Positions 23,696 through 26,600 of a stretch of 64,000 bases of DNA are shown here, piece after piece. The number at the start of each line of letters is the position of its first letter. Position 1 is the stretch's first letter. The translations under genes and the position numbers were made by a program. Below the pieces are notes generated by a model. It did no database searches and was not told where the DNA came from. It worked only from the letters and a program-made list of their open reading frames with translations. This DNA is from Kiritimatiellia bacterium (GTDB lineage: Bacteria; Verrucomicrobiota; Kiritimatiellia; RFP12; UBA1067). The stretch covers positions 18,426-82,425 of the forward strand of contig JAFRSR010000154.1 in the NCBI GenBank assembly GCA_017427485.1, written 5' to 3'.

Positions 23696-26600
23696 ATGGA
23701 CATTCGCTTGAAGATCATGGTGGCCGCCTGTCTTGTCTGCGGGATGGTGTCGGCCGAGGCCAGAGTATGGAACGTGCGCGATTACGGCGCAAAGGGCGAC
23801 GGCGTGGCAAAGGATACCGCCGCCGTGCAACGGGCCGTTGACGCCTGCGCCGGGGCGGGCGGCGGCGAGGTGCTGCTGCCGAAGGGCACGTACCTCAGCG
23901 GCTCCGTGTTCCTGAAGAGCGGCGTGGACTTCCACCTCGCCGAGGGCGCGACGCTGAAGGGCAGCCCCGATCCCGCCGACTACAACGCGCTCGACGTGGC
24001 GCCGCAGAACTGGGGCCGTCTCGGGAGCGGCGACAACATCAGCGGCGGACATCTCATTCTTTGCATTGAGCAGAAAAACGTGACCCTGCGCGGCCCCGGC
24101 AAGATCGACGGCAACGTGAAGGCGTTCCTGAAGATGCCGGACGGCTCGCATCCGGCGAACAAGCTCAAGATCCCGTGGCGCCCTGCGCAGATGGTGTGGT
24201 TCGTGGAGTCGAAGGACATCACGATTCGCGACATCGAGCTCGCGGACGCGCCGTACTGGTCGTGCTTCGTCTACGGCTGCGAGGACGTAGTTGTGGACAA
24301 GGCCTACATCCACACCGTGCGCCAGCCGCACACGTACAACGGCGACGGGCTCGACATCGACTCGTCGCGCCGCGTGCGCGTGACGGGCTGCCGCATCTTC
24401 ACGGCGGACGACTCGATCACCCTGCGCGCGGCGGGGCAGGGGCGCCTGAAGACCGACGGCCCCTGTGCGGACGTGACGGTGTCGAACTGCACGTTCTCCT
24501 CCGACTGCAACGCGATCCGCCTCGGCGTGGGCAACGGCGTGGTCAGGGACTGCTCGTTCACGGACATCCGCATCGAGAAGACGCGCTACGCCGTCAACGC
24601 CGTCGGCGCGTGGTCGCGTCCCGAGCCGGGCGTGGACATCTCCAACATCTCCTTCCGCAACATGACGATCGACGCGAAGGGCTTCTGCAAGTTCTACTAC
24701 AAGTTCGCGACGAAGAGCGTGTTCGACGGAATCACCTTCAGCCACGTGCGCGGCACGGTACGCGAGCCGTCGATCTTCGACGACAAGCAGGAGCGTCCGT
24801 TCCGCAACCTCCGCTTCGACGACGTGAAGCTCGCGGGCGAGACGTCGCCGCGCGTGATGGGGCCGCGGCGGCCTGAGGGCAGGCCGCCCTACCGGAGCGC
24901 CTTCACGCCTGCGCCGCTTGGCGCGATCCGCCCGAAGGGCTGGCTGCTCGACCGCGCGCGCGCCGCGCGCGACGGGTACACCGGCCACATGGACGGCGTG
25001 AGCCACCACTTCCGCCGGGCGTGGTCGGCGGACTGGAAGCCGCGCGGCGTCAACCTCAACTGGGGGAACGACGAGAAGGGCTCGTGGAGCAGTGAGGGCG
25101 GCACCTACTGGTTCGACGGTCTCGTGCATCTCGCCTGGCAGATGGACGATCCGTACCTGAAGGACCTCGCGAAGAAGCGTCTGGAGCCGGTGCTCGCGCA
25201 CATGCACGCGAACGCGTTGGGGACGCTCTGGTGGATGGACCGGCGCGACCCGAAGCAGATGGAGGAGTTCTTCGGTCCGGGCGCGTGGCAGTCGCGCTGG
25301 GTGCTCGGCATGCGGGAGCGTGCGCTTGCGGCGTTCTACGAGGCGACGGGCGACGTGCGCGCGAAGCGGGCGATCGAGTGGGCGTTCGGGAACGAGGAGG
25401 TCGCGCGGCGCGCGGGCGGCGCGACGTTCGCGGCCGGCTGCATCGACGTGGCGCGCGTGACGGGGAGCGGCAAGGTGCGTGCCTGCGCGGAGATCGCCGC
25501 CGAGGAGCTGAAGAAGAACTCGCAGTACGCGAAGCCGCCCGCGCCGTGGCTGCCGGAGACGCTCTGGACGCGCCGCACGGCGCAAAACGCGCTCAAGATG
25601 CCCACGCGCCACGGCGTGTTCTGCGCGGAGCAGCTGCTCGGCGTGTGGCGCGCGTGGCAGTTCACGGGCGACGCGAGCCTGCGCGACGCGGTGCTCGCGT
25701 GGTACGCGTTCCTCGACAAGAACTGCCACCAGCCGTATGGTCTCACGATGATGGACGAGGAGTGGGGCTGGTCTGGGGCGAAGCGCGGCACGGAGACGTG
25801 CGACGTGGCCGCCGAGACGTTCACGCGCATCAACATCCTCGCGGGGACGGGCGACGGGAAGTGGGGCGACGACGTGGAGCGCGTGCAGTTCAATGCCGCG
25901 CCGGCGTGCGTCTCGCGCGACTTCAAGCGGCACGTCTACTTCCAGCTTCCGAACCGCGCGGGGTTGCCGGGCGAGGCGAAAGGGCTGTCGTGTCCGTACG
26001 ACAGCCAGTGCGAGTACCGCGAGTCGAAGCAGTGGCCGCTCTGCTGCGTGGCGGCGCTCAACAAGGTGCTGCCGAACTACATCCAGGCGATGTGGATGAA
26101 GACCGAAGACGGCGGCGTGGCGGCGACGGCGTACGGCCCCTGCACGTTCGAGGCGAAACTCGCGGGCGGGCGTGCGGTATTCACGGAAAAGACGACCTAT
26201 CCCTTCTCCGAGACGGTGGAGATCGTGGTGGATGAGGCGCCGGGGGCGGCGTTCCCGTTGCTGGTGCGACTGCCGGGCTGGTGCGAGAATCCGTCCGTTG
26301 AGCTGAACGGGAAGCCTCTCGCGGCGAAGCCCGAACGTGGCTTCGCGCGGATTGCGCGCGAATGGAAGCAGGGTGACGTGGTGCGCCTCACGTTCCCGAT
26401 GAAGCCGCGCGTGGAGATCGTGCGGGACATGAACGACATGGGGCGGCGGCGCGCGGTCGTCTCGTTCGGTCCGCTCCTGATGGCGTACGCGTATCCGGCG
26501 AAGGACGACAACACGATCGTCGGCGACGCGGCGGAGCCGGTTCTCGATCCGGCGTCCGTGCTGGGCGCGCAGGTGGTGCGCACGGCGATGCCGGCCGTGT

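Follow-up and report, generated by a model that had tools for sequence, protein, structure and literature searches.

The stretch of DNA analyzed here (hereafter the window, whose coordinates are used throughout) is 64,000 nucleotides (nt) long, has a G+C content of 64% and belongs to an uncultured Kiritimatiellae lineage of the rumen. On its plus strand, at 23696-26719, it carries a gene for a predicted bifunctional glycoside hydrolase (GH) in which a GH28 module is joined to a GH127-like module, and the DNA encoding the linker between the two modules contains, at 24865-24892 on the minus strand, a GTAG-tagged palindrome of the repetitive extragenic palindrome (REP) type.

The GH28-GH127 gene and the palindrome in its linker

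The gene lies within the open reading frame (ORF) 23573-26719 of the plus strand, the sole long ORF with a coding signature across the hairpin, with a G+C content at third codon positions (GC3) of 0.92. With MDIRLK (nt 23696) as its probable start, the protein has 1007 residues with an N-terminal signal peptide, and this exact protein is present in a public collection (P0103/P0108). Pfam searches located GH28 / pectate-lyase-like domains at residues 66-422 and the catalytic and middle domains of GH127 at residues 564-943, with scores of 53.4 bits for PF00295 (cut-off 22.9), 30 bits for PF07944 (24.9) and 69.1 bits for PF20736 (24.2). With the profiles of both families above their curated cut-offs, the protein is predicted from its sequence to be a pectin-degrading carbohydrate-active enzyme (CAZyme) combining GH28 and GH127 activities.

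The boundaries of the two modules are set by relatives. The signal peptide and GH28 beta-helix module (23696-24856, plus strand), whose last beta-strand comprises residues 369-380, ends at ...GETSPRV, an end point which is also seen where relatives fuse the module elsewhere or stop there (P0017-P0027), P0026 terminating at GETSPRVR. The GH127-like module, of the beta-L-arabinofuranosidase family (24899-26716, plus strand), starts at AFTPAPLGAIRPKGW, which corresponds to the mature N-terminus of standalone homologues: in these, the signal peptide is followed by (A)FT.AP.G..RPKGW, with FTSAPVGAIRPKGW in P0107 and P0003. Between them lies the linker MGPRRPEGRPPYRS (24857-24898, residues 388-401), of which residues 390-399 are encoded by the palindrome, the gene strand being translated as ...GETSPRVMG-PRRPEGRPPY-RSAFTPAPLGAIRPKGW.... 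Since relatives fix both the stop of GH28 and the start of GH127, between which PRRPEGRPPY falls exactly, these ten residues are the core of the linker. In the AlphaFold model (mean predicted local distance difference test score, pLDDT, of 84), residues 390-397 have a pLDDT <50 and are without secondary structure; they lie after the final strand of the beta-helix and before the first of GH127, with confident domains on either side. As modeled, the palindrome-encoded residues are probably disordered.

The plus strand at 24865-24893 reads GC GGCGGCCTG AGGG CAGGCCGCC CTAC C and the element itself, on the minus strand, GTAG-GGCGGCCTG-CCCT-CAGGCCGCC-GC. The hairpin (24867-24888) has two 9-nt arms (24867-24875 and 24880-24888) which are 100% complementary and the 4-nt loop AGGG. 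It thus has the GTAG directly beside the stem, the GC-rich stem of permitted length (9 bp, with 5-13 allowed) and the short loop (4 nt, with 2-20 allowed) that characterize the GTAG REP superfamily, as defined by Di Nocera et al. 2013 (BMC Genomics 14:522, PMC3733652). As the sequence shows, a stop codon is absent from four of its six frames, among them the one used by the gene, and the element is therefore simply translated. The DNA fold of the hairpin (-13 kcal/mol) has a z-score of -2.3 against shuffles, and the window contains ten perfect hairpins of at least 9 bp versus 3.1 +/- 1.7 in shuffles, so a 9-bp hairpin is by itself weak evidence for a REP. The 22-mer is unique in the window, with no second copy even allowing up to three mismatches.

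Unlike this exact search, a search for the GTAG tag beside a generic hairpin revealed a family, and the identity of the element is therefore solid. Six copies of GTAG-GGCG-N5-loop-N5-CGCC, or GTAGGGCG-N-CGCC, are present in the window versus 0.29 expected, with six being reached by 0 of 100 shuffles; GTAGGGCG by itself occurs seven times (1.6 expected). All six copies share GGTAGGGCG...CGCCG, and the inner stem pairs 5-9 vary between CG, GC and TA with both sides changed, the only exceptions being two G.A mismatches at pair 7. Such compensatory changes are what has been described for the sub-families of GTAG REPs (PMC3733652). Collectively, these data support that the element is a GTAG-tagged REP-type palindrome. 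The preliminary description of the locus, which had recognized a reverse-orientation REP-type element with a perfect 9-bp stem and assigned to it the linker between GH28 and GH127, was correct on both points.

Linker alleles and the recombination tract

The 90% cluster of the fusion protein has 122 members; those read here were ten sequences, full-length or spanning the junction. Eight of these ten orthologues, at at least 90% identity, carry a short and non-palindromic linker, GETSPRV(L/V)G-PL(K/N)L-RSAFTRAPLG, and the REP linker is present only in the window protein and in P0110, which derives from two JGI samples (L201 and L202). Of the two arrangements that the preliminary description had proposed to look for in relatives, the fusion without the element thus exists, with GPL(K/N)LRS at the junction; separate GH28 and GH127 genes with an intergenic element were not found. 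Separate trees for the two halves of the protein, GH28 and GH127 (the second too poorly resolved to decide whether the fusion is monophyletic), each contain two sub-clades, and one REP allele stands among short alleles in each of them, a distribution which requires recombination.

The tract carrying the REP linker was located by identity profiles against L201 and L001 and covers ~400 nt (about 24780-25190). Within this tract, identity of the window to L201 is 96-100% and to L001 68-88%, whereas over the rest of the gene the values are 78-93% and 93-100%, respectively; the residues WLLD and HMDG in the tract are also of the type of the other sub-clade. This switch in identity shows that the lineage of the window received its REP linker on an imported tract of ~400 nt.

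At the junction, the long form reads GGGGCCGC-GGCGGCCTGAGGGCAGGCCGC-CCTAC-CGGAGC and the short form GGGGCCGC-TGAA-CCTG-CGGAGC, the long form having a net gain of 18 nt. An origin by template switching or by slippage between direct repeats was considered and rejected: neither arm is present in the short allele, and the GGCCGC repeats would delete 21 nt, not 18.

The possibility of an assembly artefact, for which the preliminary description had asked that reads or long-read assemblies be checked, is excluded by the presence of the same sequence in independent assemblies, namely the NCBI metagenome-assembled genome (MAG), ENA contigs (P0108), the two JGI samples and Logan contigs. For runs X1 and X2, the Logan contigs show 0 differences from the REP allele, and run X8 carries the short allele. 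In both carrier runs, the Logan contigs break at or beside the hairpin (24858-24901), an example of how such palindromes fragment de Bruijn-graph assemblies. In run X5, the depth of the contig rises abruptly at the hairpin, where the loose end, GTAGGGCGGGGTGCCC..., reads like a second REP.

The GH28 module has a wider distribution. At 73-84% identity, it is joined to at least eight partner architectures in rumen Kiritimatiellae relatives (P0017-P0033), including prenyltransferase-like, rhamnosidase, DUF4091, polysaccharide deacetylase, GH92 and GDSL partners as well as an N-terminal extension. The break occurs at GETSPR(V/I) in all these fusions, pointing to extensive shuffling of modules at a single boundary, and no REP-type peptide, hairpin or REP signature was found at the other GH28 fusion junctions read. 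Two further proteins deserve mention: P0061, which combines a beta-helix with GH127 and was considered as an older fusion, has the opposite domain order and is irrelevant here, and P0011, an orotidine monophosphate decarboxylase N-terminus followed by a GH127 module with a frameshifted tail, probably comes from a chimeric or erroneous contig.

Related palindromes in the window and in other metagenomes

The search with GTAG and a hairpin yielded five copies besides the linker element (copy D, 24865-24892, minus strand), starting at 15330+, 17016+, 18077-, 23129+ and 57406+. All six are located inside ORFs with a GC3 of 0.82-0.92 and are read in a TAG-free frame; four of the six are between or beside Pfam domains and, like copy D, the other five occupy linkers, loops or N-termini. 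Copies A1 (15330-15357, plus strand) and A2 (17016-17043, plus strand) belong to one GH2 (LacZ-like) gene, in which they encode G-RARPPDAP just after the N-terminal sugar-binding-domain match (residues 73-205) and between LacZ_4 and Bgal_small_N, respectively. Although 1.7 kb apart, they are identical at 27 of 28 nt and encode the same GRARPPDAP, which suggests intragenic copying or gene conversion. Copy B (18050-18077, minus strand) lies in a gene for a pyruvate formate-lyase (PFL)-like glycyl-radical enzyme and encodes ...AVAGRPPYRA just after a twin-arginine translocation (Tat)-type N-terminus. The start of this ORF (17991-18060) bears the Tat-type motif MTRRDFIGTGAMFGAAAAAG, which is unexpected for a cytoplasmic and oxygen-sensitive enzyme family, and its start codon or annotation may need checking. 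Copy E (57406-57434, plus strand) encodes VGRAVSSAPQ near the N-terminus of a beta-lactamase-like hydrolase. The two N-terminal copies, B and E, could be upstream of the actual start codon.

Two of the copies have a second hairpin at their side. Just upstream of A2 (16987-17007) is the GC hairpin GAAGCGGCG-AGA-CGCCGCTTC, and just upstream of E (57383-57402) is GTGG-GCAGGGCG-CCCT-CGCCCTGC. These untagged or GTGG-tagged hairpins may form, with A2 and E, head-to-tail REP doublets inside genes.

Copy C (23129-23157, plus strand) encodes GRAGRPRPAE after CVSCHDGS in an HZS_alpha-domain gene, and its site shows a polymorphism like that of the linker site. One copy is present in the window and in L048, two tandem copies in L201 and none in P0109 or L203. 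In L201 (9406-9477) and L202, the copy is doubled in tandem with a unit of 36 nt, or 12 codons, and L001 and L002 have at this site a different hairpin, GGAGGGCCGCG-CTCCGT-CGCGGCCGCC. P0109 (1673 residues) is an orthologue of gene C and not of the fusion protein, though it falls in the same 90% cluster. Copies of the family were also found in the related contigs L201, L202, L003 and L048, and no GTAG-REP was found in two other related contigs, L203 and L204 (23 and 14 kb, respectively).

The exact stem of the linker element was also searched in metagenome contigs and was found at at least 120 loci which, among the matches listed, represent about 69 distinct places. Among the same matches, 124 copies were counted (122 in the loci of the scan and two in L201/L202), and 91 of the 124 have the GTAG/CTAC tag on the stem, so that tag, stem and tail recur together and the term reverse-orientation REP-type element is accurate. 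Seven of the loci were sampled, of which six are from Gemmiger formicilis and the seventh is from a Verrucomicrobia MAG. It was considered whether these same-stem loci represent the organism of the window, which was dismissed as they have no blastn match to it and 6/7 are from G. formicilis. Similarly, the coding-like context of the metagenome copies did not stand: the hairpins precede real start codons or sit at ORF ends and are extragenic.

In G. formicilis, a human-gut Firmicute (L081-L200), a REP with stem GGCGGCCTG, loop NGGG and a GTAG tag is very abundant. Its copies frequently form a pair with another hairpin, GTAGGGCGGGGTG....CACCCCGCC, and others are placed inside a longer repeat (GCTTCTCATTACCGCAAACGTCCGC...CTACATCCCACTTTACCACATTCCG) with a spacing of 180-240 nt (L087, L119). 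This REP shares with the linker element the identical 9-bp stem GGCGGCCTG/CAGGCCGCC, the NGGG loop, the GTAG tag and the GC tail. However, it belongs to a different phylum, and its copies are extragenic and often arranged as doublets or within longer repeats. The identity of the two stems is probably due to convergence within a GC-rich superfamily and not to shared descent.

Origin and significance of the linker element

Intragenic units are a recognized minority of the GTAG REP superfamily, and REPs wholly inside ORFs are most numerous in Opitutus terrae, a member of the Verrucomicrobia within the Planctomycetes-Verrucomicrobia-Chlamydiae (PVC) group (PMC3733652). As such intragenic GTAG REPs have been documented (PMC3733652), an in-frame REP in a gene is already known. 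The elements of the window resemble them in their GTAG end, 6-9 bp GC-rich stem and short loop, in having sub-families with alternative complementary stem residues, in being translated in frame, in occurring sometimes as two copies per gene and in having a PVC host (PMC3733652). In contrast, most REPs in that survey are extragenic, whereas all six copies of the 64-kb window are intragenic, in an uncultured rumen Kiritimatiellae lineage for which alleles and a recombination tract are seen directly. These segregating alleles with their tract, and the intragenic position of every copy in the window, are the new features reported here.

The linker element also works like the Rickettsia palindromic elements (RPEs), palindromic repeats found in frame in functional genes and translated as additional peptide at the protein surface or in linkers (Ogata et al. 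2000, as cited in PMC3733652). The short intragenic repeats RPE-4 and RPE-6 of Rickettsia conorii have been placed among CGTC-tagged REPs, and RPE-1 has been described as 'longer palindromic insertions' (PMC3733652). As described, RPEs differ from the present element in lacking the GTAG tag and in their phylum and lifestyle, and the element here is 28 nt long. RPE-1 is about 100-150 bp long and contributes around 30-50 residues. The REP/REPIN-RAYT systems of Escherichia coli and Pseudomonas, in which RAYT designates a REP-associated tyrosine transposase, share the GTAG, the GC-rich hairpin and the multi-copy nature (Nunvar 2010, PMC2817692; Bertels and Rainey 2011, PMC3116915). A Y1 (HUH) transposase is believed to mobilize their REPs in the form of single-stranded hairpins (PMC2817692, PMC3116915). 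Those REPs are extragenic and often form inverted doublets (REPINs, i.e. REP doublets forming hairpins, or BIMEs, for bacterial interspersed mosaic elements), in contrast to the single or head-to-tail tandem copies found here inside ORFs.

The explanation favored here, with a probability of about 70%, is that a GTAG-REP entered an existing flexible linker and that the resulting allele then spread by recombination. A family of GTAG-tagged REPs would be carried by the rumen Kiritimatiellae lineage, and one copy would have entered the GH28/GH127 linker, replacing ~5 nt of the old linker for the net gain of 18 nt. In its stop-free frame, the element would have been translated as ten Pro/Arg/Gly-rich and hydrophilic residues which were tolerated and probably neutral, in line with the neutrality proposed for intragenic REPs in flexible linkers or loops (PMC3733652). 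The REP-bearing allele would then have moved between strains by homologous recombination on the ~400-nt tract, which is how the lineage of the window would have acquired it. The presumed agent of mobilization is a tyrosine transposase of the RAYT type which acts on the hairpin in single-stranded form, in keeping with what has been proposed for GTAG REPs. That the element entered a flexible linker which already existed had been offered as an alternative in the preliminary description, and the short alleles in both sub-clades together with the pLDDT <50 at residues 390-397 make this the best reading of the locus.

Several observations weigh against this explanation. The DNA change at the junction is a replacement rather than a clean insertion, so that the direction of change can only be deduced: a REP-bearing ancestor followed by a deletion may be the alternative history, and the preference for a gain relies on parsimony over ten orthologues and on trees with open forks. 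Moreover, six intragenic copies out of six are atypical for REPs, which as a rule are predominantly extragenic, and a motif expression for RAYTs (HUH and Y..NP) gave no match in the window and 200 loci, although this is a weak test.

The preliminary description had given first place to another scenario, in which GH28 and GH127 genes were once adjacent and a REP in the spacer between them was read through and became the linker when they fused, PL(K/N)L arising later by loss of the REP. Such a relic would account for the position of the element exactly at the module boundary and for a junction which is not a clean insertion; REPs are in addition usually extragenic, typically just downstream of genes (PMC3733652), and both trees place the REP-bearing sequences as early branches of their sub-clades. 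Nevertheless, this scenario is unlikely. The element is not found in all or in basal descendants of the fusion but is missing from eight of the ten, the short linker is the majority form in both sub-clades, and its occurrence with diverged flanks in P0114 suggests that it is old. Because the REP allele of the window was demonstrably imported by recombination, a REP-first history needs one loss and two transfers, or the same loss twice, against one gain and the observed transfer for a short-first history. GH28 beside a separate GH127 gene is not seen in any relative: the genes upstream at L004, L005 and L006 are not GH28, and no REP was found in these three loci. The other five copies of the window being intragenic, an intergenic origin is not required either, and GH28 fusions with the same GETSPRV break bear no REP signature.

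A selected function of the element, as an mRNA structure at which ribosomes pause between the two domains in aid of co-translational folding, as an internal site of RNA processing or termination, or as a recombination hotspot for the shuffling of the GH28 module onto different partners, appears even less probable. The stem is indeed perfect and stable, the REP allele has spread between lineages and the module has many partners in relatives at a constant boundary. However, most orthologues are without the element, the fold of the RNA in a 68-nt context is no better than that of shuffles (z = -1.2), the other GH28 fusion junctions have no REP-type peptide or hairpin, and spread by recombination needs no selection. 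As for chance or artefact, with the hairpin being a GC-rich palindrome that arose at random in a rapidly evolving linker or a mistake of assembly, the high G+C content of the window, its ten perfect hairpins and the single occurrence of the exact 22-mer could have been taken in favor of it. It is refuted by the sixfold occurrence of the family pattern versus 0.29 expected and by the independent assemblies, with X1 and X2 identical to the REP allele; the GTAG tag and GC tail are also common to scores of copies elsewhere.

The probable entry of a GTAG-REP into an existing linker thus corrects the claim that a selfish DNA element was tied to the origin of this multidomain CAZyme, since in relatives this fusion has a linker which is conserved and not palindromic. 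It provides a clean and datable case of a selfish palindrome absorbed into a protein, with both alleles still circulating in rumen populations, the insert mapping onto a predicted disordered inter-domain linker and its spread visible as a ~400-nt tract. It also extends the intragenic GTAG REPs of Opitutus terrae to the Kiritimatiellae. In practice, such inserts inflate the apparent linker diversity of CAZyme catalogues and break de Bruijn-graph contigs. More tentatively, and with doubt prevailing, the family may be mainly intragenic, supplying Pro/Arg/Gly linker peptides, duplicating in tandem in multiples of three and spreading by recombination, and may thereby constitute a standing source of linkers for modular CAZymes. 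If true, this would contrast with the view of an extragenic repeat which occasionally strays into ORFs.

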